The notes: generated by a model from the letters alone, not told the origin. A stretch of DNA of 32,000 nt from Archaeoglobus fulgidus DSM 4304 (GCF_000008665.1 NC_000917.1:1350001-1382000); one strand, 5' to 3'. Positions 428-27,720 are shown, counted from the stretch's first letter. Program-made: numbers and translations.

Positions 428-454
428 AAATTTTAAATTTACCTTAAATTTTTT
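428..454. terminator. Shared T-rich termination zone between convergent histone and pgiA
   Basis: The 25-nt gap contains T4 (431-434), T3 and T6 (449-454) on the plus strand and matching A/T runs on the minus strand. Oligo-T tracts are the usual archaeal terminators. Confidence 0.35.
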
Positions 455-1160: not shown

Positions 1161-1182
1161 GATTAAAAAAAGAGCCGGATGT

Positions 1183-1211
1183 ATTTAAAGCTTGTTCAGA
1201 AAGGTATTATA
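1183..1211. promoter_or_regulatory. Back-to-back TATA boxes forming a bidirectional leaderless promoter
   Basis: tttaaata (minus sense, 1183-1190) is centred 26.5 nt from pgiA ATG 1160. gtattata (1204-1211) is centred about 26.5 nt from archease ATG 1234. No SD lies in between. Confidence 0.55.
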
Positions 1212-1233
1212 GCAGGTTGTGTGAAGAATTAAC

Positions 1234-1647
1234 ATGAAATACAGATTCATAGACCACACCGCAGACATAGCCTTCGAGGTTTACGGTTCAAACTTGAGGG
1301 AGTTATTCGAGAATGCTGCTCTCGCCTTTTATGATGCTTTTGTTGACACATCAGGAATTGGAATAGAAAGGGAAGTTGGGGTTGAGTGCGAGGGGGAGGA
1401 TGTGGAGATCACGCTTTACAGATGGCTGAACGAGCTGCTCTACCTCTTTGACACCGAATTCTTCGCCGCAAAGGATGTGGAGGTTGAGGTTGAGGAGGGT
1501 GATGGGGTCAAGGCGTCGGGAAAGCTCAGGGGAGGGAGGTTCAGCGCCGAAATGGTCAAGGTTGAGCCCAAGGCGATAACTCTGCACAAGTTCAGAGTGG
1601 AGAAAACAGATAAGGGATACGTTGCTTTCGTCGTTGTGGACATATGA
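1234..1647 (+). CDS. Archease
   Basis: 137 aa. The N-terminus MKYRFIDHTADIAFEVYG carries the DHTAD(I/V) archease signature. The C-terminal AITLHKF...VVVDI is typical of the family. Confidence 0.9.
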   Translation: MKYRFIDHTADIAFEVYGSNLRELFENAALAFYDAFVDTSGIGIEREVGVECEGEDVEITLYRWLNELLYLFDTEFFAAKDVEVEVEEGDGVKASGKLRGGRFSAEMVKVEPKAITLHKFRVEKTDKGYVAFVVVDI

Positions 1648-3924: not shown

Positions 3925-4792
3925 CGTACTTCCCGTCTTCTTTTCTTACCCTCCCTTCCATTTCGAGCTTTTCGATGTGCTTCTCAATCATAACCCTCTC
4001 AAAGAAGTCCAGTATCTCCTTTGCGTAGGGCTTTCTCCCGTAAATGGGGGAAAGCTCGACGAGCTCATCCAAGCTCTTCGGTTCCTCAAGAAGACTTAGA
4101 ATTATCTCTTCCCTCTCTTTTATCTTCCTCTTGAACTCCAAGATTCTTCCCTCAGCCTCCTCCTTTCCGAATACTGGCTTCGAATGGGCCGACACGAAAA
4201 TCTCGAAGTCGATGTCGAGGAGCTTGTCCATTTCCCTCTCAAAGAGGTAGGGATCTGCTTCTGGATTCCCGTAGAAGGGTCCAAAGGAGGTTAAATCAAC
4301 ATCGGCCCCAAAAAGAACCTTCTGCTCGATCAGAAAAACGTGGTGGTCCATGGTGTGACCTTTAACGGGTACTGCAACTATTTCGGGCTCCTTTACAACA
4401 ACACCCTCCTCGTATCTTTCACACTCAAACTCCCTCAGCCCTGTGGCGGCGCTTATAAACCTCTTCCAGCTTTCTACCAAATCGGGTGCAACAAAGCGCC
4501 TTGCGAGGGTGTCGAGCGTAATCCTGCCCTCCGCAGGAGCCAGGACGTCTTTAAAGAGCCATGCACCACTGGAATGATCAGGGTGGAGGTGGGAAAGGAC
4601 TAGCAAGCTCGCGTTGACTTTCCTCATAACCTCAAGTCCTGCTCCGGCGTCGATAACCACATCCCCAACCACGACAACGTTGCAGTAGGGAAATCTCCCC
4701 CCGTTCATACCCTCGATAACTCTAACACCTCTCATTACTTCCATTGCATTCCCCAACAACTTATTGTTGAAAACACTATCGAACGCGGCCAA
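3914..4792 (-). CDS. MBL-fold metallo-hydrolase
   Basis: HxHxDH motif in LSHLHPDHSSG, followed by GHTMDH. The start is uncertain: the track start 4792 is TTG, and ATG 4744 (MEVMRGVRVIEG...) is an equally good candidate. The 3' end overlaps aroA convergently by 11 nt. Confidence 0.8.
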   Translation of the reverse strand: MAAFDSVFNNKLLGNAMEVMRGVRVIEGMNGGRFPYCNVVVVGDVVIDAGAGLEVMRKVNASLLVLSHLHPDHSSGAWLFKDVLAPAEGRITLDTLARRFVAPDLVESWKRFISAATGLREFECERYEEGVVVKEPEIVAVPVKGHTMDHHVFLIEQKVLFGADVDLTSFGPFYGNPEADPYLFEREMDKLLDIDFEIFVSAHSKPVFGKEEAEGRILEFKRKIKEREEIILSLLEEPKSLDELVELSPIYGRKPYAKEILDFFERVMIEKHIEKLEMEGRVRKEDGKYVRV

Positions 4793-4832
4793 GCAGTTGA
4801 AGAAGGAAAGGAGTCTGCTCGGAAACGCGTAT

Positions 4833-5537
4833 ATGGCTGCCCTTCTGTTCTACATTTCAGCTATCTTCGTTCCTGAGGCAATATGGCTTCTCTGGAGCTT
4901 CCCACACTGGGAAACCATGCATGTATGGAATTCTCTCAGCGAGATACCCACCGCCTATGTTACGGCTTTCATTTCTGGAGACGCTTTGCTCGCTGTAATC
5001 GGCTTCTGGGTTGCAGCAAAGCTAATAAGGTCCGGGAGAGATTACGCAGCCCACATCCAGTGGATAGCCGGATACTTCGCCTTTTTCTTCGTTTTGGCTC
5101 ACGGATGGGATGGAACGGGATGGCAGAGGTTCACTTGGGACCCCACGGTGACGGGCATGCCATGGGAGCCGGGGAGAACGATGTGGGTGGATTTTGCAAC
5201 GAGCAACGTTGCCATTACGCTTTACGCAATGGCCCTGCCGACGATAGTCCCGATGATTGCTGGAGGCTACATCTGGCTCAGGAACGGTCACATTCTTGCA
5301 GGTTTGGATGGGGCAAGAGCCTCCAGTTTGGCTGTGAAGGGAGTTGCTATATATCTCCTCGGAGTCTTCGTGGCTTTTCTGATGGCCGCGTGTGCGACAG
5401 TAATTTCGCTGCACCTCACCACGCAGGCAGGGATGCTGGTTGGAGTGATTGTCACAATTACCGTAGCCTACGCTCTGGCCTTCAGAAGGGGAGGAATTCT
5501 TCAAACCGCAATTTCTAGAGGATTTAACTTGACATAA
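4833..5537 (+). CDS. Polytopic membrane protein, unknown function
   Basis: About 6-7 hydrophobic segments and Trp-rich loops (GWDGTGWQRFTWDPTVTGMPWEPG). The track start 4764 is TTG, so I moved it to the first ATG (4833, MAALLFYISA). No clear promoter or SD is visible, so the start remains uncertain. Confidence 0.6.
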   Translation: MAALLFYISAIFVPEAIWLLWSFPHWETMHVWNSLSEIPTAYVTAFISGDALLAVIGFWVAAKLIRSGRDYAAHIQWIAGYFAFFFVLAHGWDGTGWQRFTWDPTVTGMPWEPGRTMWVDFATSNVAITLYAMALPTIVPMIAGGYIWLRNGHILAGLDGARASSLAVKGVAIYLLGVFVAFLMAACATVISLHLTTQAGMLVGVIVTITVAYALAFRRGGILQTAISRGFNLT

Positions 5538-5552
5538 CTTTTAAATAGTTAT

Positions 5553-5560
5553 TTTTATAA
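5553..5560 (+). promoter_or_regulatory. TATA box of the Roadblock operon (leaderless)
   Basis: ttttataa is centred 26.5 nt upstream of ATG 5583. Confidence 0.5.
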
Positions 5561-5582
5561 CACTTTTATTGCTGGTGATAAC

Positions 5583-5927
5583 ATGTTCGAAAACGTGATA
5601 GCCGATATGCTCAGTGTTAATGGTGTTAAAGGTGTGTACATCGTTGATGCTGAGGGGGCCCTGATCGAGGCCGAGTCGATTTTTTCTGACGATGATGAGG
5701 TCTATGCTGCCCTGATTGCCGACGCTTTTAACAAAGCCTCAGAAGTTTTGAGTAAAATATCCTCCGATGAGCCGGAGCTTTTGATGATAGACGGTAAAAA
5801 AGACCGGATTGTGGCTTCAAGGGCGGGGGACTTAATCTTCGGCATAATTGCCGACCAGAAAACCAATTATGGATTGCTGAAAATAGAAATCAAAAAGGCG
5901 GTTGAAAAAATAACGGCCATGGTGTAG
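5583..5927 (+). CDS. Roadblock/LC7 (MglB-like) domain protein
   Basis: 114 aa. VNGVKGVYIVDAEGALIEAES and LLMIDGKKDRIVASRAGDLIFGIIAD fit the Roadblock/LC7 alpha-beta-alpha pattern. Confidence 0.8.
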   Translation: MFENVIADMLSVNGVKGVYIVDAEGALIEAESIFSDDDEVYAALIADAFNKASEVLSKISSDEPELLMIDGKKDRIVASRAGDLIFGIIADQKTNYGLLKIEIKKAVEKITAMV

Positions 5928-5931
5928 AGCT

Positions 5932-6675
5932 ATGATGATTCCGAAGGGAGAGGTAGTGGAGCTTGGCAAGAGGGGGAACTTCAGAGACATTCTTAAGGAA
6001 TTATCCGCTACGGGGTTTACCGGCTATTTGGAGGTCTCGTACAAAAAAGGAGAGCTTTCCAGGGCCAAGGTACTTTTTAGCAACGGTAAAATTGTTGCTG
6101 CCGGTATCAAGAGGGTGATAAGCAAAAGTGAAATCGTAGGAGAAAAGGCGCTTGAAGAGTTGCTCGGCCTTGAAAGCTGTGTTGTTGACGTCTACGCCCT
6201 CGATGAAGGAAAGGTGGCAAAGGCTCTCGAGTGGAACAGGAATGCTGTGGTGGAGCACCTCCCCGAAACGGAGGTTGAGGTAGAGGGTGGGCTGACAGAG
6301 GAGATTATAACCACCCCCGACGAGAGGGAAGCAATTCTCAAAAAGTACGGAATAAAAATGCCTTCCGAAGAAGAGATCGACCAGATAATCATGAACGCCC
6401 TCGATGGCAGCTACGATGTCATTGCCGCCACAACCTCTGCTCCCGGCGATTTCGAATCCCTCAAGAATTCGCTTATAAGCACGGCCGAGCTTTATCTCGG
6501 AAAAATGTCCAAGAAGGTTGTTGATGTGATAAACGACTGCAAGTCGGCTGAGGAGCTTGTGGAGAGGTTTGACGAAATTAGAAGCGCTGCAAAATCTTTG
6601 GTCATTTTCATCCCGAGGAAAAAAATAGATGAGATGCTCTCCGAAATGGAGAGGCTAATCGGGGAGAGTATTTAA
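5932..6675 (+). CDS. DUF4388/DUF2226-like protein with acidic linker and helical C-terminal module
   Basis: 247 aa, starting 4 nt after the Roadblock stop. The N-terminus GNFRDILKELSATGFTGYLEV...VLFSNGKIVAA...GEKALEELL follows the DUF4388 (PATAN-associated) pattern. A Glu-rich linker and a helical tail follow. Confidence 0.6.
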   Translation: MMIPKGEVVELGKRGNFRDILKELSATGFTGYLEVSYKKGELSRAKVLFSNGKIVAAGIKRVISKSEIVGEKALEELLGLESCVVDVYALDEGKVAKALEWNRNAVVEHLPETEVEVEGGLTEEIITTPDEREAILKKYGIKMPSEEEIDQIIMNALDGSYDVIAATTSAPGDFESLKNSLISTAELYLGKMSKKVVDVINDCKSAEELVERFDEIRSAAKSLVIFIPRKKIDEMLSEMERLIGESI

Positions 6676-6878
6676 CCCTCTTTTTCAAGCCTTTCCTCGA
6701 CTATTTCGACATACTCCCTAAGCTCCTTGTTCATTTTCAGAACGCTGAGAATTTCCTTGTAGTTTGAGTCGTCCACGTCATCGTAGCCCAAACTTTCCAT
6801 TGCCTTGTTCAGGAAGATTTTTGCGATCGGCCCGATTTCCTTTTTGAGCTCATCTAAAAGTTTTTTGTAGGTTATCAT
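6672..6878 (-). CDS. 68-aa all-helical protein, unknown function
   Basis: Its start overlaps the stop of the HAMP gene (ATGA, 6875-6878). Its stop shares TTAA (6672-6675) with the convergent gene. LLDELKKEIGPIAKIFLNKAMESLG is a predicted helical hairpin. Confidence 0.6.
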   Translation of the reverse strand: MITYKKLLDELKKEIGPIAKIFLNKAMESLGYDDVDDSNYKEILSVLKMNKELREYVEIVEERLEKEG

Positions 6879-7891
6879 TTCAGTGCCTCCTCAAGGCTCT
6901 CCATGGCGACCTTGAGGCTCCTTCTCAGCCTTTCGATACTCTTTGCAAGAATACCGATTTCATCAGCCCTGTTCTGGTGCGGAACCTCAGCCTCAAGGTT
7001 TCCTTCGGCAATCTTGTCGGCAGTGTTGCTCAGCTCGATTATGGGTCTCGTAATGGTCGAGGTTGTGAACACCGCCAGAACGATGACGAAAACTATAGCA
7101 ATTGCCGCTGCAATACCCAAAGCGTAGTAAACCTGCTGAATTGCACCCTCAACACTCTTGCTTATCTCACTGGCGATGTTCTCTGCAGGATTGGCGGGGT
7201 TCTGGGTGAGGTACTGGAAGTAACCGTCGATGTAGGCTGAGGTTCCCACAACAACCCACAGCTGACCCTTGGAAATCGGGTCATAGACCTTTATGGTCGT
7301 GGGATAGTGGCAGAGATATTTCGGAATTTCTTCCTTTTCAGGTGTTTCGGGGTCATCCCAGTGGTAATAGCCACAAACCGGCTTTGGAGCTTCAGGGTTT
7401 TCGGTTATTTTGAGGAGCAGGTTGTAAAGCTCAGGCATTGTTTCGTTCCATCTCAGCATCGCAACGTCAACACCAAGGTACTTTTCGTACTGTCCGGTGA
7501 AGGCGGGATGCGTTAGGATAACTGCCACATCCCTACCCGCAACTTTGTTACCAGCACCAACCCAGGTGTACTCCTTCGCACCCCAGCGTTGTGCTCCAAG
7601 ACTTCTGAACTTCGGGTCTTGAATTAAGTCAAAGGTTGTGAGCATGGTTTTGTTCTCGAGTTTCATCTTTGCCTCAATGTAGGTCTGAACTGCCAAGGCC
7701 AAATCCTGTGCCTTCATCCTGACAGCTTCCTCACCGGCCTTGGTCAGGTATTCCTGGCTGACTGTTGTAACGCCCTGCTTCGCCTCTTCAGCAGAGGATG
7801 TCATCCCAGCTATGGTAAGATAACCAAGAACGCTCAGGGGCACAAGGCTTGCAACAACCACTATCAAAACAATTTGGGGCGTCAACTTCAT
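6875..7891 (-). CDS. Two-TM receptor with extracytoplasmic Cache-like domain and HAMP domain, no output domain
   Basis: TM1 is IVLIVVVASLVPLSVLGYLTIAG. An outside domain of about 230 aa follows, then TM2 (LGIAAAIAIVFVIVLAVFTT). The HAMP domain is ITRPIIELSNTADKIAEGNLEAEV...ADEIGILAKSIERLRRSL, and the protein ends 15 aa later. Confidence 0.8.
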   Translation of the reverse strand: MKLTPQIVLIVVVASLVPLSVLGYLTIAGMTSSAEEAKQGVTTVSQEYLTKAGEEAVRMKAQDLALAVQTYIEAKMKLENKTMLTTFDLIQDPKFRSLGAQRWGAKEYTWVGAGNKVAGRDVAVILTHPAFTGQYEKYLGVDVAMLRWNETMPELYNLLLKITENPEAPKPVCGYYHWDDPETPEKEEIPKYLCHYPTTIKVYDPISKGQLWVVVGTSAYIDGYFQYLTQNPANPAENIASEISKSVEGAIQQVYYALGIAAAIAIVFVIVLAVFTTSTITRPIIELSNTADKIAEGNLEAEVPHQNRADEIGILAKSIERLRRSLKVAMESLEEALK

Positions 7892-12712: not shown

Positions 12713-13501
12713 TTATGGAAAAACTCTGCCCTCAAGGCTCGGGTCGTGGCCGGGAAGAATGTTTGCCTTCTTCGCCACACTCAACGCCTTAAAGCAGCTT
12801 TCGTACCACTCAGATAGGTCAACATGAAGCCCCGGCGGGAGGAAGGGGAGGGGTGAGGTGGGAATCTCAACGGTGTTTCCTGCAGTGTCGGTCATCTGAA
12901 TGGGCTGCTTTGGCGGGAAGAAGTTGAAGTAGGTGTAGAAGTGGTCTGCAGCGAGCAGGTATGTCCCTTTCTCCGTCTCCACAGCTACTCCCTGCAGCCC
13001 CTTGGTGTGTCCCGGCAGCAGCACAGCCTTAACTCCTTCGGCAATCTCCACATCGCCGTCAATTAAGCAGAGGTCCATCTCCTCAAGTGGATAAAGCATG
13101 CTTGAATCGTAGGTCTGGCGGTAGTGCAGAGGAGGGTTTAGGGCAGACTCCCACTCCCTCTTTTGCACGTAAATCCTCGCATTGGTGAAAAGCTTGGCAT
13201 TGGCAGCGTGGTCGAAGTGAAGGTGCGTGATTATGAGCTTGTCAACATCCTCAGGCTTTAGATTTACCTTCTCCATAGCCTCTCTCAAACCCTTCTCTCC
13301 CCCACCTTTTCCCGGAAATCCGTGGAACATTCCGTTCTTAGCCTCCTCAACTCCTGAATCCACAACTATCTTCTCATCCCCGCCATCAATAACCCAGACG
13401 TAAACGGGTCCAGTGGCCATAACTCTCATGTCCCCCATCATGATAGTTACTCCAAGGGGGACGCTTATTTCAGCAACCTTCAAAGGCATTATCTTATACA
13501 T
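12713..13501 (-). CDS. MBL-fold hydrolase (lactonase-like)
   Basis: ITHLHFDHAANA (HxHxDH) and LLPGHTKG are present. The ATG directly abuts the stop of the upstream ligase (TGAATG), with GGAGGTGG just upstream. Confidence 0.8.
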   Translation of the reverse strand: MYKIMPLKVAEISVPLGVTIMMGDMRVMATGPVYVWVIDGGDEKIVVDSGVEEAKNGMFHGFPGKGGGEKGLREAMEKVNLKPEDVDKLIITHLHFDHAANAKLFTNARIYVQKREWESALNPPLHYRQTYDSSMLYPLEEMDLCLIDGDVEIAEGVKAVLLPGHTKGLQGVAVETEKGTYLLAADHFYTYFNFFPPKQPIQMTDTAGNTVEIPTSPLPFLPPGLHVDLSEWYESCFKALSVAKKANILPGHDPSLEGRVFP

Positions 13502-15160
13502 TCAACCACCTCCCTTCTCCAATTTCTCCTTCTCCCTTTCCTGCAGCAACCTCCACAAAATCTTACCAGCCCCGCTCTTCGGAAGCTCATCATCAAACTC
13601 TACAATCCTCGGATACTTGTATGCGGCCATCTGCTGCTTCGCCCACTGGATTATCTCTTCCTCTGTGATTTTGCCCCTGTACTCAGGATTGACGACGATG
13701 AAGGCCTTAACCTCCTCAACAACCCTCTCATCCGGAACTCCTATAACACAGACCTCCTTAACTGCGGGATGCTTGTAGAGAACCGCTTCAACCTCTGCAG
13801 GCCAGACTTTGAAGCCAGAACGGTTAATCATCCTCTTAATCCTGTCAACAATGAAGAAGTAGCCGTCTTCATCCATGTAGCCGAGGTCTCCCGTTCTGAA
13901 GTATCTCTTCCCATCTATCTCAATAAATGCCTTTTCCGTCTCCTCAGGCTTGTTCCAGTATCCCTTGAAAATCTCAGGCCCTGAAACAACTATCTCTCCT
14001 TCCTCGTTTGGTGGGAGCGGCTTTCCCGTCTCGATGTCAATCACGAGGGCATCAACACCAAAATCAGGAATGCCAAGGCACTGAAGCTTTGGATTTTGGG
14101 GAGGGTTCATGTGCGTCTGGGAGATGGTCTCGGTTAAGCCGTAACCCTCCATGTACCTTATCCCCGTAAGCTGATACAGCTTCTCAGCCACGGCTTTGGG
14201 CATCGGCGCTCCCCCACCACCAACTACAAGCAGAGAGCTCAAATCCCTCTCAGCAATTTTCGGGTCGCTGAGCAGGTCAATTACCATCGTCGTTATGTTC
14301 ACCCAGTGGGTGCAGCGATACCTCTCAATCGCCTGCAAAGCTGTCTCCCTGTCCCATCTCGTAAGCAAGACCATTGTGGCACCTATGTAGACCGGAGCGA
14401 GCATTGAATGCACCATTCCTGTGACATGGAAAAACGGCAGGGTTGCCAGTGATATGGCTGAGGGGGTGAGGTTAAACCAGTGAACTGAGCTCAGAACGTT
14501 TGCTATTGCTGTAAAATGCGTGTGCATGCAGCCCTTCGGTAACCCAGTTGTGCCCGCTGTGTAGGGAATCAGGGCAAGGTCATCGCTTCCTACCATAACT
14601 TCAGGCGGATTTCTCTCCTTCATTGCCTCACTCCAGCTTGTTGTCCCCTCAACGTCAATTTTTAGCTTGGCAAAGTCTGGAACTGGCAGTGTGGGCTGCT
14701 CGGGTATGAAGTCAGAGAGGTTTCCGCAAACCACCTGAATTCCAAGCTTCTTTGCCACAGGCAGAACCCTGCCTGCAAGCTCTGAAGTTGCTACAACAAG
14801 CTTGCTGCCAGAGTCGCTCAGAACGTACTCAAGCTCCCTCTCAACAAGCATCGGATTAACTGGCACGACAGCAGCATTGGCTCTCATTATTCCGAAAAAT
14901 GCGATTACGAACTGCGGGGAGTTCTGGGCGTAGATTGCCACTCTGTCCCCTTTCTCAACCCCGGCATTGCTTAAAAAAGTGGCAAATCTCTCAACAGCGT
15001 CAAGAAGCTCATTGTACGTTATCTCCCTGCCATAGTAGATTATTGCAGCCTTATCGCCAAATCTCCTCGCAGACGTCTCGACAAACTCAAAGAGGGGAAC
15101 CCTTGGGTAGTCAAGTGTTTTTGTCAAAAGAGGGGGCCAGTGCCTGAACCAAGGTTTCAT
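13502..15160 (-). CDS. AMP-forming acyl-CoA synthetase (fatty-acid/medium-chain CoA ligase family)
   Basis: 552 aa. Motifs seen: YTAGTTGLPKGCMHTH (A3), GYGLTE (A5), YFRTGD (A7), PKSGAGKILWR (A10, Lys533, codon 13562-13564). Confidence 0.9.
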   Translation of the reverse strand: MKPWFRHWPPLLTKTLDYPRVPLFEFVETSARRFGDKAAIIYYGREITYNELLDAVERFATFLSNAGVEKGDRVAIYAQNSPQFVIAFFGIMRANAAVVPVNPMLVERELEYVLSDSGSKLVVATSELAGRVLPVAKKLGIQVVCGNLSDFIPEQPTLPVPDFAKLKIDVEGTTSWSEAMKERNPPEVMVGSDDLALIPYTAGTTGLPKGCMHTHFTAIANVLSSVHWFNLTPSAISLATLPFFHVTGMVHSMLAPVYIGATMVLLTRWDRETALQAIERYRCTHWVNITTMVIDLLSDPKIAERDLSSLLVVGGGGAPMPKAVAEKLYQLTGIRYMEGYGLTETISQTHMNPPQNPKLQCLGIPDFGVDALVIDIETGKPLPPNEEGEIVVSGPEIFKGYWNKPEETEKAFIEIDGKRYFRTGDLGYMDEDGYFFIVDRIKRMINRSGFKVWPAEVEAVLYKHPAVKEVCVIGVPDERVVEEVKAFIVVNPEYRGKITEEEIIQWAKQQMAAYKYPRIVEFDDELPKSGAGKILWRLLQEREKEKLEKGGG

Positions 15161-15184
15161 TATTAAACGTGAAAAAGTAAGTAT

Positions 15185-17830
15185 TTAACTGTTGCGCCTT
15201 ATGCGAATCTTGGCGTCAACAACCTCCGCACCACTTGAACTCACCATGACCGGATTGCAGTCCATTTCAACGATTTCCGGAAACTCCTCTATCAGGTAAT
15301 TTATCCTGAGTATCGTTTCAATGAAAGCCTCAACGTTGGCCTTCTCCCCACCCCTGTATCCCTCAAGAAGCCTGTATGCCTTTAGCTCCCTGACCATCTC
15401 CACCGCGTCCTGCCTCGTTATCGGCGTAACCCTCACAGAGACATCCTTCATGAGCTCAACAAGAATTCCCCCAGCCCCGCACGTAATCAAAGGCCCGAAG
15501 GACGGGTCTTCGGCGACACCTACGAACATCTCCACTCCTCTGCTCATTCTCTGCACGAGAAAGCCCTCGACCTCACCAATTCTTTTCAGCATTTCCTCGG
15601 CTTCTTTCTTGGCCTCTTTCGGAGTGAGGTTTACTTTCACAGCCCCCTTCTCGGTTTTGTGTATCAGATTTGGAGCGTGAGCCTTCAGCGCCACCCTTCC
15701 AAACTTTTTCGCGGCTTCGTAAACCTCCTCGGGTGTTTTCACGTACTCGTACTCAGGGAACGAAATGCCGAAGCATCTCAGAAGCTCGAAAGCCTCAGGC
15801 GGAGATAGCCACTCCCTCCTGCCTATTGCCTCCGCGATTATCGACGCCGCTCTTGCCCTGTCCACCTCAAATGTTGGAACGGGCTCGACGCTCTTTTCCC
15901 TCCACTTTGCATACTCTACAACCTTCCCAAGAACCTTTGCCGCTGTGTTCGGGAAGACGTAAACCGGAACCTTGACCTCATCACCTATGACGCCATCCTT
16001 CGAGTCGCTGCTTATGTAGATGTAAACAACAGGCTTCCCTACGGAATTTGCGTACTTTGCGGCGGAGATTACCGCCTTCTCGACCTCCTCGCTCTTCTCC
16101 TCACTCACCGCAGCGACGAAGATGCAAATTATCGCATCAACGTTCTCGTCTTCCGCCACTGTTTTCAGCGTTTGTCCATACATTCTGACGTCTGCCGATG
16201 CGGTCATGTCAACGGGGTTCTTCACGCTCGCTATTTCCGGCAAAAGATTTCTGAGCGATTCCTGCGTTCTCTCACTCAGCTCGGCGATTTCGAGGCCTAC
16301 CTGATGGCACCAGTCAGAGGTTATTGCGCCCAGCCCCCCACCGTTCGTGACGATGCAGACTCTGTTTCCCTTGGGCAACGGCTGATGGAGAAGGAATTCC
16401 GAGATTGAGAAGAGCTCGTCAATCGAGCTTGCCCTGATTATGCCTGTCTGCTTGAAAAGCGCATCAATTGCTATTCCTGACGACGAAACAATGGCTCCGG
16501 TGTGTGACGCGACCGCCTTTGCTCCTGCGGGAGTTACTCCTGAAGCGATGGCGAGTATCGGCTTTTTCTTCGAAATTCTCTTAGCCAGCCTTGCAAACTT
16601 TCTCGGATTGGGTATGGATTCTTGGTAGAGCATTATCAGCTTCGTCCTCCCATCCTCCTCCCAGAACTCTATGAGGTCGTTGCTCGTAATGTCTGCACTG
16701 TTGCCAAGTGAGACGAAGTACGATAAACCGAGGCCGTAGTTGTTAACCCTGTCCATTAAGGCGAGTCCTACCGCACCGCTCTGCGAGGCAAAGGCTATGC
16801 TCCCCTCATTCGGTGGGGTGGGGGCAAAGGTGGCGAGGAGCCTTGTTTCGGGAGCCGTGTTGATGATACCCATGCAGTTCGGCCCAATCAGCCTCATTCC
16901 GTACTTTCTGCAGATTTCCACCAGCTTTTTCTGCCTCTCCACACCCTCTCCGCCAACCTCAGCAAAACCAGCGGTCAGGACGAGGAGGGCCTTAACCCCT
17001 TTTTTACCGCACTCCTCGGCGACTTCAAGGGCGTATTTCACCGGAACTGAAAGGACGGCAAGCTCAACTTCGTCAGGCACCTCGGAGATTGTCGGGTAGG
17101 CTCTCACACCCATTATCGCCTTGGCAGCCCTGTTTACGGGATAAGCGACACCGTTGAACCTGTATGTGAGGAGATTGTAGAAGGTCCTTCCCCCGACCTT
17201 CTCAACATCCCTCGAAGCGCCTATTACTGCAACCGATTCCGGGTTGAAGAAGTGCTTCAGAGCGTTGAAAGTTGCGATTTTCTCCCTTTTCTCGAAGTAC
17301 TCAATCACATTCTCCGTCAAAGAGGTTGACATCCTAATTCTTATCTTCCCCCCCATTGGTGTTATCTCAACCGGAAATCCCGATTCCTTGAAGACTTCAA
17401 TGATGGCGTAGTTGTCCGCCCTCACATCAGCTTCAAAAATCTTTATTCCTCTTTTTTCCGCAATCTCTGCAAGCGCTCCGAGGAGTATCGTTCCCAAACC
17501 CCTCCCTTGAAACTCTTCCCTGACCACAAACCCCACTTCCGCGGAATCTCCGGAAGTTTTTCTGTAAACTGCGTGCCCAACAATTTTGTCTCCTAAGAGA
17601 GCTACAATTCCGAATTCGTCCTCACTGCAGACAAGATAAGATTCTACGATTTTGCAGACCTCCTCCTCGCTTGGAGTGTAGGAGAATCTCATTTTTAGCG
17701 ATTCGGTAGAGAGCGAGAGATAGAGGTCCTTTAGGCCCTCATAATCTTTCTCGTTCACAGGCCTTAAGCGAACAACGCTTCCGTCTTTGAGATAAGCTTC
17801 TCCTTCCAGACCGTAGAGTTTGACTCTCAT
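15185..17830 (-). CDS. Fusion of N-terminal GNAT acetyltransferase with ADP-forming acyl-CoA synthetase (alpha plus beta/ATP-grasp) domains
   Basis: 881 aa. The GNAT motif A is REEFQGRGLGTILLGALAE (about aa 15-165). The CoA-binding part is FFNPESVAVIGASRD and the phosphohistidine-type loop is AVASHTGAIVSS. The C-terminal ATP-grasp part is EAFELLRCFGISFPE...ALKAHAPNLIHKTEKGAV. Confidence 0.85.
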   Translation of the reverse strand: MRVKLYGLEGEAYLKDGSVVRLRPVNEKDYEGLKDLYLSLSTESLKMRFSYTPSEEEVCKIVESYLVCSEDEFGIVALLGDKIVGHAVYRKTSGDSAEVGFVVREEFQGRGLGTILLGALAEIAEKRGIKIFEADVRADNYAIIEVFKESGFPVEITPMGGKIRIRMSTSLTENVIEYFEKREKIATFNALKHFFNPESVAVIGASRDVEKVGGRTFYNLLTYRFNGVAYPVNRAAKAIMGVRAYPTISEVPDEVELAVLSVPVKYALEVAEECGKKGVKALLVLTAGFAEVGGEGVERQKKLVEICRKYGMRLIGPNCMGIINTAPETRLLATFAPTPPNEGSIAFASQSGAVGLALMDRVNNYGLGLSYFVSLGNSADITSNDLIEFWEEDGRTKLIMLYQESIPNPRKFARLAKRISKKKPILAIASGVTPAGAKAVASHTGAIVSSSGIAIDALFKQTGIIRASSIDELFSISEFLLHQPLPKGNRVCIVTNGGGLGAITSDWCHQVGLEIAELSERTQESLRNLLPEIASVKNPVDMTASADVRMYGQTLKTVAEDENVDAIICIFVAAVSEEKSEEVEKAVISAAKYANSVGKPVVYIYISSDSKDGVIGDEVKVPVYVFPNTAAKVLGKVVEYAKWREKSVEPVPTFEVDRARAASIIAEAIGRREWLSPPEAFELLRCFGISFPEYEYVKTPEEVYEAAKKFGRVALKAHAPNLIHKTEKGAVKVNLTPKEAKKEAEEMLKRIGEVEGFLVQRMSRGVEMFVGVAEDPSFGPLITCGAGGILVELMKDVSVRVTPITRQDAVEMVRELKAYRLLEGYRGGEKANVEAFIETILRINYLIEEFPEIVEMDCNPVMVSSSGAEVVDAKIRIRRNS

Positions 17831-18579
17831 TGGCTCTCAGCTTCCCGGTTTGTTAAAATACCTTTCTCGTCTTTTCCCGACAGAATCCTGAGCAGTAAAA
17901 GTCCCACCTCGTACATGATAATGAAAAGGGCAAGGCTGGCAATCTGGGTTAAACCTGTAAAATCCATCGTCAGATTTGTTATAAAAACCAGGATGAGGAT
18001 GTAGACGGGAATTCTTAAGCTCCTGTAGGTGGAGTACTTTACCACACCAAATCTGTCGGACAGCACCATGAAAAGCGGTATCTGGAAGAAGAACCCGAAG
18101 GAAATCAGCAGCTTGAAGGCGTTTGTCAGCGTTTTCTCGGCAGAGAGGTAGGGGTCGGCAGCACTTGTTAACGCAATGCTGTAAATTGTCGGAACAACGA
18201 ACTTGTAGGCAAAAAATGTTCCGAAGAGGAATATTCCGTAGCTTGGAATCAGAATGGCCTTCAAGAACCTCCTTTCGTGCTCGTAAAGCCCCGGTTTGGC
18301 AAAAAGGTAGAGCTCGTAGATAACGTACGGATACAGGAAGATAAGGGATGTGATTAATGAGAAGCCCAGCCTGATCACGACCCATTCAATGGGGGAAAAC
18401 ACGTAGATTGGGTTCTCTCCAACAAGCGAGTACCAGAAGGCCAGCAGATACGGGTAGGAAACGTAGTAAGAAATCGATACCGCTACAATCAGGATTATAC
18501 ATACCCTCAACAACCTTTTTCTGAGTTCCTCAATGTGCTCCCTCAGCTCAAGTTCTCTGTCCTCAGGCGGGCCACTCAC
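17827..18579 (-). CDS. tatC: Twin-arginine translocase subunit TatC
   Basis: 250 aa with 6 TM segments. LREHIEELRKRLL at the N-terminus is typical of TatC. The start is GTG, about 24 nt from a TATA (18600-18607). The stop overlaps the downstream ATG (ATGA). Confidence 0.85.
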   Translation of the reverse strand: MSGPPEDRELELREHIEELRKRLLRVCIILIVAVSISYYVSYPYLLAFWYSLVGENPIYVFSPIEWVVIRLGFSLITSLIFLYPYVIYELYLFAKPGLYEHERRFLKAILIPSYGIFLFGTFFAYKFVVPTIYSIALTSAADPYLSAEKTLTNAFKLLISFGFFFQIPLFMVLSDRFGVVKYSTYRSLRIPVYILILVFITNLTMDFTGLTQIASLALFIIMYEVGLLLLRILSGKDEKGILTNREAESQ

Positions 18580-20984: not shown

Positions 20985-21594
20985 GGTATTCAACCTGAAT
21001 CGACCTGAACTCGACGTTTTTAGACCGCTTTATCAGCCTGTAAAGCTCCTCATCCCCTTCTCTGTTGGGCATGAAGGCCCTCACTGATGGCAATGCCGCA
21101 ACGAACACAACCAAAGCTCTTGACCTCTTCCCTATCTCCTCAAGCAGCCTGAGGTGCTTTCTACCCCTTGCGGTGGGGCAGTCGGGGTACATCGCATAGA
21201 TTCCCTTCTTGAGGGCAGCACTTTTAAGCTCCACGTAGCTCTCTCCAATGCGGTAATCGATTATGGAGTTTCCAACTTTAACGTTTCTCCTAACCTCTCC
21301 ATCAAGCCAGCTTATTTTCGGAATGGCTACCTCAAAGGCTCTCATCTGAAGCTGTGTATCTATCAGAGCGTAACCGCCTTCGCAACTGACAGCAAAAAGC
21401 CTGTACGAGAGCTTTCCACCTCTTTTGGTCAAACATTTCCCCACATTACCCTCAAAAATGAGCTCCTTCAGCCTTCCCGTGTTGTTTATGTAAGCCCTTT
21501 CCCTCCTCCCATCCACCTCAACATCCACCACAAACCTGTTCACTCTGCCAATTATCCTGCAATCCACGGCGTTCTCAATCTCAAAAAGCTTCAT
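20935..21594 (-). CDS. sfsA: SfsA-family protein (sugar fermentation stimulation protein homologue; OB plus nuclease-like fold)
   Basis: 219 aa. GRVNRFVVDVEVDGRRERAYINNTGRLKELI is the characteristic SfsA N-terminus. The start overlaps the GNAT stop (ATGA). Confidence 0.85.
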   Translation of the reverse strand: MKLFEIENAVDCRIIGRVNRFVVDVEVDGRRERAYINNTGRLKELIFEGNVGKCLTKRGGKLSYRLFAVSCEGGYALIDTQLQMRAFEVAIPKISWLDGEVRRNVKVGNSIIDYRIGESYVELKSAALKKGIYAMYPDCPTARGRKHLRLLEEIGKRSRALVVFVAALPSVRAFMPNREGDEELYRLIKRSKNVEFRSIQVEYLNGKVFLRNPDLKVVI

Positions 21595-22079
21595 ATCTCT
21601 TTTTCAAGCTCGAGGTAGTCCGCATCCCTCTCCGCTACCTTAAATCCCAGCCTCCTGTAGGTTTCAACGGCCCTTCTGTTTGTTCTCTCAGTTATGGCCT
21701 TTAGCTTCTTTATCCCCTTTTCCCTCAAGAACTTCGTGGCGAACCTTATCAGCTCACTGCCTATCCCCCTGTCCTCGTAGTCCTGATGCATGAAAATTGC
21801 AAACTCCGCCTCCTCGCCAACCGGAACGGCAGCAATGTGCCCTATAATTTTATCTCCCCTCTTCGCGATGAAGCCGTAGCCGTTCTCGTGCAAGCCGTCA
21901 ATCCAAACCTCTATTCCCTTCCTTGTGGCAGGCGGCAGTCCACAGCAGCGCCTATCAGGGCTGAACTCTTCGTACATCTTTATCAGGTTCTCCCTCTCCT
22001 CGGGAACGAAAATTGTGACGAATATTATTTCTCCTTCTTTGTCCTCATAAAACTCGGAGTAAAGGTTATCGTTAGCCAT
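21591..22079 (-). CDS. GNAT-family N-acetyltransferase (Pat-type)
   Basis: 162 aa. Motif A is HQDYEDRGIGSELIRFATKFLRE. The overall pattern parallels the GNAT domain of the 881-aa fusion at 15185-17830. Confidence 0.8.
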   Translation of the reverse strand: MANDNLYSEFYEDKEGEIIFVTIFVPEERENLIKMYEEFSPDRRCCGLPPATRKGIEVWIDGLHENGYGFIAKRGDKIIGHIAAVPVGEEAEFAIFMHQDYEDRGIGSELIRFATKFLREKGIKKLKAITERTNRRAVETYRRLGFKVAERDADYLELEKEI

Positions 22080-24737: not shown

Positions 24738-24773
24738 CGAAAGACCTTTTTGATGGAACGGCGTACTTTAATC

Positions 24774-25352
24774 ATGGAGGTGCTTTTTGAGGCCAAGGTT
24801 GGGGACATCACTCTGAAGCTCGCTCAGGGGGACATCACCCAATACCCGGCAAAGGCAATTGTCAACGCGGCCAACAAGAGGCTGGAGCACGGCGGAGGGG
24901 TGGCTTATGCCATCGCAAAAGCGTGTGCAGGAGATGCCGGGCTCTACACGGAAATCAGCAAAAAGGCCATGAGAGAGCAGTTTGGAAGAGACTACATCGA
25001 CCACGGCGAGGTCGTTGTTACACCGGCCATGAACCTCGAGGAGAGGGGAATAAAGTACGTTTTCCACACCGTGGGGCCGATATGCAGCGGCATGTGGAGC
25101 GAAGAACTGAAAGAGAAGCTTTACAAGGCTTTTCTTGGCCCGCTGGAGAAGGCGGAGGAGATGGGCGTCGAATCCATAGCCTTCCCTGCTGTGAGCGCTG
25201 GGATATACGGCTGTGATCTGGAAAAGGTTGTTGAGACGTTCCTCGAAGCTGTGAAGAACTTCAAGGGTTCGGCTGTCAAGGAAGTCGCGCTTGTAATCTA
25301 CGACAGAAAGTCTGCGGAGGTGGCGCTGAAGGTCTTTGAGAGGAGTCTTTGA
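24774..25352 (+). CDS. Macro-domain protein (MacroD-type ADP-ribose binding/hydrolase; Af1521-like)
   Basis: I trimmed the track start 24750 to ATG 24774, giving 192 aa. MEVLFEAKVGDITLKLAQGDITQYPAKAIVNAANKRLEHGGGVA and IAFPAVSAGIYG are the canonical macro motifs. From memory it matches Af1521. Confidence 0.93.
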   Translation: MEVLFEAKVGDITLKLAQGDITQYPAKAIVNAANKRLEHGGGVAYAIAKACAGDAGLYTEISKKAMREQFGRDYIDHGEVVVTPAMNLEERGIKYVFHTVGPICSGMWSEELKEKLYKAFLGPLEKAEEMGVESIAFPAVSAGIYGCDLEKVVETFLEAVKNFKGSAVKEVALVIYDRKSAEVALKVFERSL

Positions 25353-25422: not shown

Positions 25423-27720
25423 ATGACCGTTCGCAGTCTTCTTGAAGAGGTTTCAAAGGCGGCGGAAATCGCTGCCAGCAATCGACACAGGTTTATGGTC
25501 ATTCTATGCTCAAAGGAGCTCAACGACAGGGTTGTTAAAATAGCCAAGAGGATTTACAAAAAGCACAGAAAAAGGATGAACGAGGACAACCTCCTCATTG
25601 CGGGGAGGAGCGATTTTCTTGATATCACCCGAAAGTACTTTGAGGGGGAGTTTCTGCACTACAAGGACTCGCCGAAGGTGCTTGGCCAGACCTACTCCTC
25701 CCTTTTGATAGACTTCACCGAAGGTTTTCATCCCAACGATTTGGGAATAATCGTTGAGACGATCAAGGAGGGTGGAATAATCATAGCCTTCTCCCCGCCC
25801 ATCGAGCAGTGGGAGAATCTGAAGAGCAGGTGGCACGAGGAGCTTGTTTCCGAGCCCTACACAGTTGAGGACGTAACAGGGAGGTTTTTTGCGAGGTTCA
25901 TGAGGAGGACGCTTCAGGCGGAGGGCATAATTATCTTCGATGCGGACAGAAGAAAAATCATCAAGCACTACGAGTTTGAGCCGAAGGAAATTTCGAGAGA
26001 GGAAATCGTAATTCCCGAAGACATTGAAATCAAGAGGAAGCTATACAAGCTCTGCGCAACTCAGGACCAGGTCAGAGTTCTGCAGGTCTTCGAGCGATTT
26101 TTTGACAGAAAGAGGGAGAGGAAAGCTGTTGTGATTACGGCCGACAGAGGGAGGGGAAAGACGGCCATTTTGGGCATCGCCACACCCTACATAATTTCAA
26201 GGATGGAGAGGCTGCTCAAGAGGCCTGTGAGGATTATGGTTGTGGCTCCAACCCCTCAGGCGGTACAGACCTACTTCAGATTTCTCCTCAAGGCGATGGT
26301 AAGGCAGGGGATGACGAAGTACTTCGCAAAGGAGACAAACGGCCTGATAACGGTTGTCAACAGCAAGTACGCAAGGGTTGAGTACGTTGTGCCGAGAAGG
26401 GCGATGCTGGAGAAAGACACTGCGGATGTAATCATAGTCGATGAGGCTGCAGGGATTGACGTGCCTGTGTTGCTTAAAATCACTGAAGGGGTCAGGTACA
26501 TGATTTTCTCCACGACAATTCACGGTTACGAGGGCACGGGAAGGGGATTTGCCATCAGGTTTTTGAAAAGGCTTGAGAGTGACGAGACGGTTGAAATCGA
26601 AAGAATCCACATGGAGGAGCCAATCAGGTACGGTAAGGGAGATCCGATAGAGAAGTGGCTTTACGATGTGCTACTACTTGACGCTCAGCCGGCAGAGCTC
26701 GATGATGAGGATGTCGAAGCTATAAAGCAGGGGAAGCTTGAGTTCAGGGAGGTGGACAAGGATGCGCTGGTGAACGATGAGAAGCTCCTGAGAGAGTTTT
26801 TCGGAATCTACGTGCTCGCTCACTACCGAAACCGTCCTTCAGATTTGGCAATACTCCTCGACATGCCGAACCACCTTCCATTCATTGTTACGGTGAACGG
26901 CAAACCCGTTTGCTCCCTTCACATCGCAGTTGAAGGGAACCTCGACGATGAAACAATCGAGAAAATAAAAGAAGGCTACAAGCCGAAAGGACAGATAATC
27001 CCCGACCTGATGCTGAAGCACTACTGGGACTTCGAGTTTCCGAAACTTGTAGGCGCGAGGGTGGTGAGGATAGCAACCCACCCGTCTGTTATGGATATGG
27101 GGATCGGGAGCTTTGCCCTGGCGAAGATAGTTGAGTGGGCCTACGGCAGAGACATGGACTGGGTTGGTTCGGGATTCGGAGTTTCACCGGAGCTTCTCCG
27201 CTTCTGGGCTAAGAACCACTTTACACCCGTGCACATAACACCTCAGAGGAACGAGGTTAGCGGAGAGCACACCTTAATCGTTCTAAGGGCTTTGAAGTAC
27301 GATGTAGAGGATGTTGTTGAGAAGCTCAATTCGGAGTTCACGAGAAGGCTGATTGAATACCTGGCGGACGAGCTTTCAGATTTGGAGACCGAGACGGCGG
27401 TTCTTCTGCTCAGGTCTCTTAGAAGGAGCTTTGAAATTCCTTCCCCCAGATTCGGAAAGGTGGAAAGGAGGAGAATGAGCAAGTACTTCCAGGGCATGAG
27501 CCTTTACGAGTACGTTTCGGACATAATAAGGCCGCTCGTAAGATATTACTACTCCAGAACTGACAGAGACGAGCTTGAGGAGGTTGAGGAAGAGGTTTTG
27601 ATTGGAAAGTGTCTGCAGCTAAAGCACTGGTCCGAGCTGCCGGGGGAGGGGTATAAGAAGTACAGAACACTCCTGAATGCCGTGAAAAAAGTCTGGAGAT
27701 GGTACTATGGAGAGGATTAA
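25423..27720 (+). CDS. tmcA: tRNA/RNA cytidine N4-acetyltransferase (TmcA/Kre33/NAT10 homologue)
   Basis: 765 aa. It has a DUF1726-like N-terminus, a helicase P-loop (TADRGRGKTA), a Walker B motif (VIIVDEAAGI), a GNAT domain (RIATHPSVMDMGIGSFAL) and a tRNA-binding tail. The TATA at 25393-25400 is centred 26.5 nt from the ATG. Confidence 0.88.
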   Translation: MTVRSLLEEVSKAAEIAASNRHRFMVILCSKELNDRVVKIAKRIYKKHRKRMNEDNLLIAGRSDFLDITRKYFEGEFLHYKDSPKVLGQTYSSLLIDFTEGFHPNDLGIIVETIKEGGIIIAFSPPIEQWENLKSRWHEELVSEPYTVEDVTGRFFARFMRRTLQAEGIIIFDADRRKIIKHYEFEPKEISREEIVIPEDIEIKRKLYKLCATQDQVRVLQVFERFFDRKRERKAVVITADRGRGKTAILGIATPYIISRMERLLKRPVRIMVVAPTPQAVQTYFRFLLKAMVRQGMTKYFAKETNGLITVVNSKYARVEYVVPRRAMLEKDTADVIIVDEAAGIDVPVLLKITEGVRYMIFSTTIHGYEGTGRGFAIRFLKRLESDETVEIERIHMEEPIRYGKGDPIEKWLYDVLLLDAQPAELDDEDVEAIKQGKLEFREVDKDALVNDEKLLREFFGIYVLAHYRNRPSDLAILLDMPNHLPFIVTVNGKPVCSLHIAVEGNLDDETIEKIKEGYKPKGQIIPDLMLKHYWDFEFPKLVGARVVRIATHPSVMDMGIGSFALAKIVEWAYGRDMDWVGSGFGVSPELLRFWAKNHFTPVHITPQRNEVSGEHTLIVLRALKYDVEDVVEKLNSEFTRRLIEYLADELSDLETETAVLLLRSLRRSFEIPSPRFGKVERRRMSKYFQGMSLYEYVSDIIRPLVRYYYSRTDRDELEEVEEEVLIGKCLQLKHWSELPGEGYKKYRTLLNAVKKVWRWYYGED

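Follow-up and report, generated by a model that had tools for sequence, protein, structure and literature searches.

In E. coli PatZ and Salmonella Pat (YfiQ), the type I enzymes, a GNAT domain stands at the C-terminus of a chain that also carries the five subdomains of the ADP-forming synthetases (ACDs). PatZ lacks the catalytic His of the ACDs, having NTTAGM with a 5-residue deletion and L245 in place of H254; its homologous domain is a purely allosteric acetyl-CoA sensor, and ATP binding by full-length PatZ was not measurable (PMC12184503). The layout in which the GNAT comes first, known as type II, is that of Streptomyces lividans PatA (SlPatA) and has been described since 2013 (PMC4053389, PMC8556138). 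SlPatA acetylates AacS and SeAcs (PMC4053389), and a review regards the ACD-like domains of type II as inactive, with the catalytic His absent (PMC8556138). In the ACDs themselves two His residues have catalytic roles, exemplified by H256 and H535 of Nmar_0206 (PMC11494057). S. solfataricus Pat (3F8K), the Alba acetyltransferase, also comes from an archaeal host, and is a 160-aa stand-alone GNAT without an ACD module.

A GNAT-first fusion in Archaeoglobus fulgidus

The window, a stretch of 32,000 nucleotides from A. fulgidus DSM 4304, contains at 15185-17830 on the minus strand an ORF for an 881-aa protein, in which a Pat-type GNAT is followed by a full alpha-then-beta ACD. The protein is 100% identical to the A. 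fulgidus cluster P0001 of the homologue cluster search, and its locus name is probably AF1511, as obtained by counting genes from AF1521, which is located at 24750-25352, 7 kb from the fusion gene. The ORFs, the 24-nt spacing to the downstream ligase gene, the domains and the motifs given in the initial annotation were all found again by ORF calls, Pfam, NCBIfam and inspection of the sequence. The features of the locus are as follows.

12713..13501, minus strand: AiiA-like MBL-fold hydrolase, 262 aa (Lactamase_B of Pfam; AiiA structure matches)
13502..15160, minus strand: FadD-type AMP-forming acyl-CoA ligase, 552 aa (ORF, Pfam, PRK08314)
15161..15184, minus strand: 24-nt spacer ATACTTACTTTTTCACGTTTAATA from the fusion gene to the ligase (sequence)
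15185..17830, minus strand: GNAT-ACD fusion, 881 aa (ORF, Pfam, NCBIfam, AF2 model)
15200..15820, minus strand: ATP-grasp (ACD beta-type) part, aa 671-877 (ATP-grasp_5; alignments with 4xyl_B and 1wr2)
15911..17260, minus strand: ACD alpha-type part, aa 191-640, with CoA-binding, Succ_CoA_lig and Ligase_CoA_2 (TIGR02717; alignments with 2csu, 4xyl_A and 8wzu)
16481..16540, minus strand: swinging phosphohistidine loop GVTPAGAKAVASHTGAIVSS, aa 431-450, with the His443 codon at 16502-16504 (ACD alignments)
17366..17791, minus strand: Pat-type GNAT domain, aa 14-155 (Pfam, structure matches, motif residues)
17827..18579, minus strand: tatC (ORF, Pfam)

Pfam places Acetyltransf_1 at aa 67-152, in a GNAT region of about aa 14-155, and then CoA_binding_2 (199-324), Succ_CoA_lig (342-479), Ligase_CoA_2 (491-603) and ATP-grasp_5 (671-877, E 2.7e-68), the Pfam span of the ACD being aa 191-877. 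These coordinates bear out the order GNAT, ACD-alpha, ATP-grasp that had been proposed, and there is very strong evidence that the domain matches of the fusion, ligase and MBL ORFs are beyond chance. The AF2 model (pLDDT 87.7) resembles 8wzu (Foldseek TMt 0.88) and 4xyl A/B (0.83-0.87), and the protein aligns with the solved ACDs 8wzu (E 3.5e-124), 2csu, 4xyl_A/B and 9y43. All five subdomains that define an ACD, namely the CoA-binding, the two flavodoxin-like ligase-CoA and the split ATP-grasp subdomains, are present according to Pfam, AF2 and Foldseek. The fusion scores 602 bits against TIGR02717 ("acetate--CoA ligase alpha subunit"), above the trusted cutoff of 567.15 bits, compared with 451 bits for a classical Archaeoglobales ACD and 379, under the cutoff, for PatZ. 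It shares the complete fold, both His residues and the Glu/Asp/Asn set with ckcACD1 (4XYL), PH0766/PH1789, Nmar_0206 (8WZU) and Nmar_1309 (9Y43), the fused alpha-then-beta order also being that of Nmar_0206, and differs from them by 190 additional N-terminal residues that comprise the GNAT and a linker. NF045494, the model of the Archaeoglobus acetate-CoA ligase, matches the fusion not as a whole but in two stretches apart from each other, which points to a different subunit order in that ligase.

The N-terminal domain is, as judged from its matches and motifs, a GNAT of the Pat type. Its top structural match, and its best match in sequence, is the GNAT of SlPatA (4NXY/4U5Y, E 2e-15; Foldseek TM 0.84-0.89), the matching entries including one in complex with the Acs C-terminal domain; further matches are S. 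solfataricus Pat (E 2.8e-10) and MtPat. The catalytic Glu98 sits in AEVGF, aligned with AEVAF of SlPatA, and the acetyl-CoA P-loop, Q108-G-R-G-L-G113, conforms to the R/Q-x-x-G-x-G/A pattern; both the Glu and the acetyl-CoA motif are common to the two proteins. E98 is conserved in at least 90% of the GNAT-first family, although the nearest relative, P0002, has an Asp instead, and the Q-x-x-G-x-G motif is conserved as well.

The initial annotation had described the protein as Pat-like with an inverted order. The GNAT is indeed predicted to be of the Pat type, and the order is reversed with respect to PatZ, with which the fusion shares the single chain, the alpha-then-beta arrangement and 29% identity over 705 residues (Foldseek TM 0.68); with this order and with the catalytic His retained, the fusion is not of type I. 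The order is not new, however, having been published as type II for SlPatA, with the ACD-like part at the C-terminus (PMC4053389, PMC8556138). In contrast to SlPatA, the A. fulgidus protein is archaeal and thermophilic. The homologue survey found the GNAT-first architecture in more than 590 species, and all of the 120 best homologues have it.

Synthetase active-site residues and their retention

The segment AVASHTGAIVSS (aa 439-450) carries a His at position 443, which matches His254alpha of ckcACD1, H256 of Nmar_0206 and the PH0766 loop. GAKAVASHTGA of the fusion aligns residue for residue with GARAAASHTGS (4xyl_A), GAKAAMSHTGA (8wzu) and GARAASSHTGS (2csu), and SHTGA is thus the ACD phosphohistidine loop, as had been supposed. 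The low pLDDT at aa 432-439 fits a loop that moves. The second His, H724 (codon 15659-15661), occurs in LIHKTE, aligned with VVHKSD and IIHKSD (4xyl_B and 1wr2 alignments), and is the equivalent of His68beta of ckcACD1, His71beta of PfACD and H535 of Nmar_0206. Scoring of the catalytic residues, which had been suggested at the outset, found all six of them, E404, H443, H724, D857, N859 and D872, the last three in the ATP-grasp part. We take E404, D857, N859 and D872 to be acidic/Mg-site catalytic residues, after PfACD, ckcACD1 and SCS.

PatZ differs further in lacking the Asn859 equivalent. The Streptomyces PatA orthologue, 31% identical to the fusion, has a swinging loop that is six residues shorter and without S-H-T-G, and the equivalents of D857, N859 and D872 are gone. 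The inactive, His-less ACD domain by which type II has been characterized does not apply to the fusion, which has H443 in a canonical SHTGA loop; it applies to the Streptomyces orthologue but not to most family members, and the loss of the His is therefore a trait of the model enzyme and not of the architecture.

Retention of the His is, from the aligned sequences, the norm in the GNAT-first family. SHTG[AS] occurs in 117 of the 120 closest homologues, S442 is invariant and H443-T-G at least 90% conserved in most of the family, and 78 of 98 genome members have all six catalytic residues. In a comparison of 150 diverse clusters at 50% identity, the six were complete in 70 of 90 GNAT-first clusters versus 35 of 42 of GNAT-less ACDs. 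Of the eight orthologues from Archaeoglobi, P0005, P0011 and P0013 lack at least the beta-His, so ACD catalysis appears to be dispensable in this clade, and Dehalococcoidia have tandem active and degenerate copies, the second copies having lost catalytic residues. We regard the architecture, fold, residue conservation and family distribution as established.

The ligase and other neighbouring genes

The 552-aa neighbour has both AMP-binding (E 6e-102) and AMP-binding_C (E 1e-20) and scores 874 bits against PRK08314 (cutoff 705). Its PX4GK motif, PKSGAGK (P527-KSGAG-K533, aa 527-533), is encoded at 13562-13582, with the K533 codon at 13562-13564; the two domains and this A10 Lys identify it as an AMP-forming ligase of the ANL superfamily. 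The retained lysine had been read as a clue to acetylation; however, PX4GK is a general motif throughout the ligase family and its lysine is catalytic (PMC11619455), so the presence of K533 says little.

At 22-28 nt before the ligase ATG, overlapping the fusion gene's stop codon, is a TTAAATA sequence, which might serve the ligase as a TATA box of its own, judging by the consensus of archaeal promoters in general. The TGA of the ligase is directly followed by the ATG of the MBL gene (GGAGGTGG then TGAATG), in agreement with the earlier description of the two as abutting, and the MBL gene is predicted to be translationally coupled to the ligase; the nearest solved structures to its product are AiiA lactonases (E 2.5e-20). 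Upstream, tatC and the fusion gene share 4 nt (ATGA, 17827-17830), in which the start codon of the latter runs into the stop of the former, and tatC is likely co-transcribed with the fusion gene and functionally unrelated to it.

Missing ligase linkage in orthologues, which the initial annotation had named beforehand as refuting its proposal, is what the gene contexts given below show.

Possible functions of the fusion

That proposal was a dedicated operon, in which the GNAT would acetylate K533 of the neighbouring ligase, so that the ACD, which yields ATP, and the ligase, which consumes it, do not run as a futile cycle. The two genes lie on one strand with 24 nt between them, the ligase has PX4GK, the known substrates of Pat-type enzymes are AMP-forming ligases (PMC4053389), and the pair is retained in one close relative, on Archaeoglobus contig L090. 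However, an AMP-binding gene adjoins the fusion orthologue in 0 of 79 other genomes and lies within 7 kb in one, and no ligase is near the Archaeoglobi orthologues P0003, P0008, P0010, P0011 and P0013 (0 of 5 contexts). The third-codon-position identity of the two L090 genes is 0.45 versus 0.80, and because of this very different synonymous divergence either the pair is mosaic or the contig chimeric. This pairing is a genus-specific feature of Archaeoglobus, a local accident and no conserved module. Furthermore, a futile cycle presupposes common substrates, but the ligase is of the FadD long-chain type and need not have any in common with the ACD, which leaves the futile-cycle switch unsupported; the coupling of tatC means that adjacency here need not imply common function, the TATA-like box may provide the ligase with its own promoter, and the ligase would be coupled to the lactonase-like MBL gene, not to the fusion gene. 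We consider such an operon very doubtful.

The two other alternatives concern the ACD module. It is unlikely that the fusion is a purely regulatory Pat, with a non-catalytic acetyl-CoA/phosphate/nucleotide sensor whose His serves ligand binding or folding only, even though the regulatory domain of PatZ binds acetyl-CoA and phosphate as ACD1 does, without catalysis (PMC12184503), and type II domains have been called inactive (PMC8556138). The repeated loss of residues in Streptomyces, in the Dehalococcoidia second copies and in three Archaeoglobi implies that the fusion tolerates it, and Streptomyces PatA, in which the acetyltransferase is active although the ACD is degenerate, indicates that the GNAT needs no ACD catalysis. 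Yet the known regulatory-only domains have a shortened loop and no His, whereas GNAT-first proteins retain the six residues at the same rate as stand-alone ACDs, and the TIGR02717 score of the fusion points the same way; since a domain that only regulates can do without the full loop (PatZ, Streptomyces PatA), the strict retention of the loop elsewhere speaks for catalysis. Conversely, the fusion might be primarily a metabolic ACD isoenzyme with a GNAT that acts in cis, by autoacetylation and regulation of the ACD or partner ACD subunits, or on a small-molecule amine, and not as a global protein acetyltransferase. The ACD part is about 40-42% identical to GNAT-less ACDs, about the same as to distant GNAT-first proteins; a classical ACD lies 89 nt upstream of P0011, the tandem copies of Dehalococcoidia suggest hetero-oligomers, and de Diego Puente 2015 (cited in PMC12184503) states in its title that autoacetylation regulates PatZ. 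Against this, which makes the isoenzyme quite improbable, the best GNAT matches (SlPatA, S. solfataricus Pat, MtPat) are trans-acting protein lysine acetyltransferases, the targets of the sole GNAT-first enzyme characterised so far are other proteins (PMC4053389), and the gene-context comparison found no conserved metabolic neighbourhood.

On balance we lean towards a lysine acetyltransferase of the Pat kind whose ACD module is probably active, the ligase being one candidate substrate for acetylation. The 881-aa protein would be the A. fulgidus member of a widespread GNAT-first (type II) branch of Pat/ACD fusions, its GNAT serving as a lysine acetyltransferase domain and its C-terminal 690 residues forming a complete ACD predicted to bind acyl-CoA/CoA, phosphate and nucleotide. 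Because every residue of the phosphohistidine relay is kept, catalysis by this module (acyl-CoA + Pi + ADP <-> acid + CoA + ATP) has probably been preserved, and the earlier suggestion of a working ADP-forming synthetase is plausible, given the full residue set and a loop that PatZ has lost. The module may also be an acetyl-CoA/energy sensor that gates the GNAT, and K533 of the downstream FadD-type ligase may be among the sites modified; both activities, their coupling and the targets are what we infer. The literature search turned up no biochemistry of a His-retaining GNAT-first protein. The useful point is that the active-site residues of the synthetase, which the two models studied so far have lost, persist in most GNAT-first members.

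Gene Order at the Locus and the Neighboring Ligase

The gene under study encodes an 881-aa protein in which a GNAT domain precedes an ADP-forming acyl-CoA synthetase (ACD) part. It is surrounded by the following genes.

Genes of the locus (window positions, strand, and product, from ORF calling and Pfam matches)
17827-18579, minus strand, tatC
15185-17830, minus strand, GNAT-ACD fusion, 881 aa
13502-15160, minus strand, AMP-binding ligase, 552 aa
12713-13501, minus strand, MBL-fold hydrolase, 262 aa
11209-12651, minus strand, TauE-family permease

The locus and sequence features described in the initial annotation were confirmed, and the fusion product matches an A. fulgidus protein cluster at 100% identity. 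Counting genes back from AF1521, the fusion ORF is probably AF1511; a literature search on AF1510/AF1511 found nothing relevant. As the host is an archaeon, to which a sigma-70 promoter and terminator scan is inapplicable, the spacers between the genes were inspected by eye. The fusion start codon shares bases with the tatC stop codon in an ATGA at 17827-17830, so that the gene of a Tat translocase subunit is apparently translationally coupled to that of an acetyltransferase/synthetase; given this overlap, tight spacing at the locus is no proof of common function. On L090, a related Archaeoglobus contig, no tatC lies 5' of the fusion gene, and an AT-rich intergenic region is found instead. The gap between the fusion gene and the ligase is 24 nt. 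Overlapping the fusion stop codon, 22-28 nt 5' of the ligase start, is a TTAAATA sequence that may serve the ligase as a separate archaeal TATA box, so that the two genes are not necessarily co-transcribed. The translational coupling of the ligase is to the MBL gene, whose ATG directly follows the ligase TGA, with a Shine-Dalgarno sequence (GGAGGTGG) upstream, and a 61-nt AT-rich gap separates the MBL gene from tauE.

Three further genes within 10 kb of the fusion gene are related to acetylation or ADP-ribose: a stand-alone GNAT of 162 aa (21591-22079, minus strand) that matches S. solfataricus Pat weakly (E 5.5e-6), the macro-domain protein AF1521 (24750-25352, plus strand), and a TmcA-like RNA cytidine acetyltransferase of 765 aa (25423-27720, plus strand).

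The initial annotation had proposed that the GNAT domain acetylates K533 of the neighboring ligase and thereby prevents a futile cycle within a shared operon. The ligase is FadD-like (PRK08314, 874 bits), and K533 lies in a P527-x4-G-K motif; since this lysine is the catalytic one, its presence has no power to discriminate between hypotheses, and the argument drawn from an acetylatable lysine is uninformative. Linkage of the orthologues to AMP-forming ligases had been named there as one test of the model. ORFs were called in 80 genome loci (±7 kb), and phmmer and tblastn searches with the 552-aa ligase as query recovered it only in A. fulgidus itself, in L090, and, more than 3.6 kb away and nonadjacent, in L013. 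No AMP-binding gene occurs within 6 kb in the Pfam-annotated contexts of four Archaeoglobi orthologues (P0003, P0008, P0010, and P0011), nor is there one in that of a fifth, P0013 (L002). Single-linkage BLAST clustering of the neighbors across the 80 loci gave no partner consistent in position or strand, the clusters being mostly spurious long ORFs from high-GC genomes. Across these loci the fusion gene thus has no conserved neighbor, its pairing with the ligase does not extend beyond one genus, and the operon switch fails on conservation.

Even within the genus, the pair has diverged unequally. L090 keeps both genes (235-4494) with a 25-nt spacer, and identity to the A. fulgidus sequence is 76% (nt), 84% (aa), and 0.45 (third codon positions) for the fusion gene versus 92%, 97.5%, and 0.80 for the ligase gene, pointing either to recombination at the junction or to a chimeric metagenomic contig. 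The hydrolase resembles AiiA, with the fold of N-acyl-homoserine lactonases (E 2.5e-20), but lies far under the NCBIfam cutoffs. Its coupling to the ligase suggests that the two form a plausible catabolic pair for a lactone, hydroxy acid, or fatty acid, independent of the fusion gene. A possible MBL/TauE synteny with the P0008 locus was rejected: the MBL proteins show no relationship (E 0.015), and identity between the TauE proteins is only 29%. Some Archaeoglobi contexts contain acyl-CoA genes (thiolases, MaoC, ECH/3HCDH, PhaC), which are given little weight because such genes are abundant in these genomes.

Domains and Catalytic Residues of the Fusion Protein

The Pat proteins are the best-studied bacterial protein lysine acetyltransferases, but only part of the reason for their synthetase-like domain of 700 residues is understood; accounts of it present a defunct enzyme recruited to sense acetyl-CoA. 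In the A. fulgidus protein, the Pfam domains run in the order GNAT (aa ~14-155), CoA_binding_2, Succ_CoA_lig, Ligase_CoA_2, and ATP-grasp_5. It scores 602 bits against NCBIfam TIGR02717 ("acetate--CoA ligase alpha subunit"; trusted cutoff 567), whereas a classical Archaeoglobales ACD reaches 451 and E. coli PatZ 379. Among solved structures, the ACD part matches the 4-hydroxybutyrate-CoA ligase Nmar_0206 (E 3.5e-124), as well as PH0766, Nmar_1309, and both the alpha and beta subunits of ckcACD1; E. coli PatZ matches it at E 3e-84. TAL-effector matches were discarded as compositional artefacts, with zero qualifying stretches.

An AlphaFold2 model built from an alignment of 35 sequences has a mean pLDDT of 87.7 and a pTM of 0.83, with predicted disorder limited to the N-terminus and to residues 432-439, just ahead of the loop histidine. 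Foldseek aligned this model with 8wzu (TMt 0.88), with PatZ (0.68), and with the GNAT domain of S. lividans PatA (SlPatA; 0.84-0.89), including 4U5Y, in which the GNAT is bound to the C-terminal domain of Acs. The description of the GNAT as Pat-like was borne out, as all of its best solved relatives are protein lysine acetyltransferases: SlPatA (E 2e-15), S. solfataricus Pat (E 2.8e-10), and the Pat proteins of M. tuberculosis and M. smegmatis. It retains the catalytic Glu E98 (AEVGF) and the acetyl-CoA loop Q108-GRGLG, both of which are conserved family-wide.

By residue alignment, the SHTGA loop is the intact phosphohistidine loop of ACDs, as had been suspected: GAKAVASH443TGA corresponds column for column to GARAAASH254TGS of ckcACD1 alpha, GAKAAMSH256TGA of Nmar_0206, and GARAASSHTGS of PH0766. 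The second catalytic histidine is there as well: H724 (LIHKTE) falls in the same column as ckcACD1 beta His68 and Nmar_0206 H535. What H256 and H535 do in Nmar_0206 has been described (PMC11494057). Four other residues are also kept. As in PfACD and succinyl-CoA synthetase, E404 would be the Glu that stabilizes the phosphohistidine at site I, and D857, N859, and D872 would be the acidic/Mg-binding residues of site II. By contrast, the E. coli PatZ loop reads NTTAGM with a five-residue deletion, and a His occupies the N859 position, in agreement with published accounts of Pat and PatZ as devoid of the critical His and incapable of ACD chemistry (PMC3195501, PMC12184503).

Retention and Loss of the Catalytic Set in the GNAT-First Family

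The GNAT-first order, which the initial annotation had described as inverted relative to bacterial Pat, is not new: it characterizes the type II proteins already in the literature, for which SlPatA is the defining member and whose reversed arrangement has been under discussion since 2013 (PMC4053389, PMC8556138, PMC12184503). It was found in all of the 120 best database clusters, which come from Archaeoglobi, Chloroflexota, Acidobacteriota, Gemmatimonadota, and Actinomycetota and are 45-84% identical to the fusion, and in at least 592 confirmed loci (one genome per species), including those of Nitrosopumilales and another thaumarchaeon. As the thaumarchaeal loci L020 and L023 show, Nitrosopumilales too have GNAT-first fusions with the complete catalytic set; from this group come the closest solved relatives of the ACD module, namely the ADP-forming CoA ligases for 3-hydroxypropionate and 4-hydroxybutyrate that act in the carbon-fixation cycle.

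According to a review, type II proteins share with type I an ACD domain that is inactive because the catalytic His is missing (PMC8556138). The S. ambofaciens orthologue, whose GNAT is 97% identical to 4NXY, was used as a stand-in for SlPatA by aligning its 793-aa downstream part. Its identity to the A. fulgidus protein is only 31%, the shortened loop lacks S-H-T-G (ARHGGVAPQG------HAVRATRLPH), and the equivalents of D857, N859, and D872 are gone. No ACD part in the comparison was more degenerate than this one, in which two to three of the catalytic six are left. The statement is therefore true for the model enzyme. (In L089, 6001-9101, this orthologue is called as two genes of 240 and 793 aa, owing to a frameshift at the GNAT end, "LPAPTTR" versus "LPANNKMIKVF", probably an assembly error.)

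For the GNAT-first family as a whole, the absence of the catalytic His does not hold, judging from MAFFT alignment columns. SHTG[AS] is present in 117 of the 120 closest homologues, and the six-residue set is complete in 78 of 98 genome and cluster members. Among the best 150 representatives of 50%-identity clusters, all six residues were found in 70/90 GNAT-first proteins versus 35/42 GNAT-less fused ACDs, and the identities of the GNAT-less ACDs to the fusion (~40-42%) are interleaved with those of the GNAT-first proteins (35-40%), indicating that the ACD module has not drifted from real enzymes. This comparison shows that most GNAT-first fusions retain the predicted catalytic set at the same rate as stand-alone ACDs.

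Losses have nevertheless occurred repeatedly. The beta-His is missing in three of eight Archaeoglobi orthologues. One of these, P0011, from an Archaeoglobales MAG, is also without the loop His and D857 but keeps the GNAT Glu. In its locus (L088, 3786-5912 and 6001-8655), a gene for a classical beta-alpha ACD of 708 aa precedes the P0011 gene by 89 nt in the same orientation, which suggests a GNAT-ACD/ACD partnership in this lineage. Tandem GNAT-ACD paralogues occur in five Dehalococcoidia/Chloroflexota loci (L048, L059, L061, L072, and L078), the copies lying at about 4100-6900 and 6947-9673 in L059, L061, and L072. In one paralogue, both His residues and the GNAT Glu are intact. In its partner, QKTD/QRIE stands in place of the beta-His motif and AQIAF in place of the motif with the catalytic GNAT Glu, and the loop His has gone too (SQTSA/SQTGA/SETAA), except in L061, where the loop is still SHTGA. 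The degenerate copy looks like a pseudoenzyme partner subunit, and such pairs hint that ACD and GNAT activities may stand or fall together.

Proposed Function

Most likely, the A. fulgidus fusion acts as a lysine acetyltransferase of the Pat family whose activity is gated by its ACD module, which itself has probably remained catalytic. Elsewhere in the family the loop is strictly conserved, although it is dispensable in the purely regulatory domains of PatZ and the Streptomyces enzymes, which would be best explained by retained phosphohistidine catalysis. The protein would then make or consume acetyl-CoA through a His443/His724 phosphohistidine relay, and acetate, ATP/ADP, and Pi could directly drive or gate the acetylation of proteins. 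That the ACD module is both active and coupled to the GNAT, here and in most bacterial and archaeal GNAT-first fusions, is a tentative proposal, for which we put the chances at somewhat less than even.

The comparison shows the two model Pat proteins as seemingly degenerate exceptions among GNAT-ACD fusions. The bifunctional enzyme may be the ancestral state; GNAT-ACD proteins that appear to be bifunctional are widespread, and the characterized "regulatory domains" of PatZ and SlPatA seem to have degenerated from such a protein. The main interest of the finding is therefore at the level of the family, and a ligase switch specific to this locus, for lack of conservation, is of far smaller importance. 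A stable protein from the hyperthermophile A. fulgidus would offer a convenient and direct system for testing bifunctionality. An active ACD module would tie acetylation directly to the chemistry of substrate-level phosphorylation; if it is also coupled to the GNAT, the textbook view of type I and type II Pat domains as inactive sensors would be overturned, and the reason for the Pat-ACD fusion would be explained.
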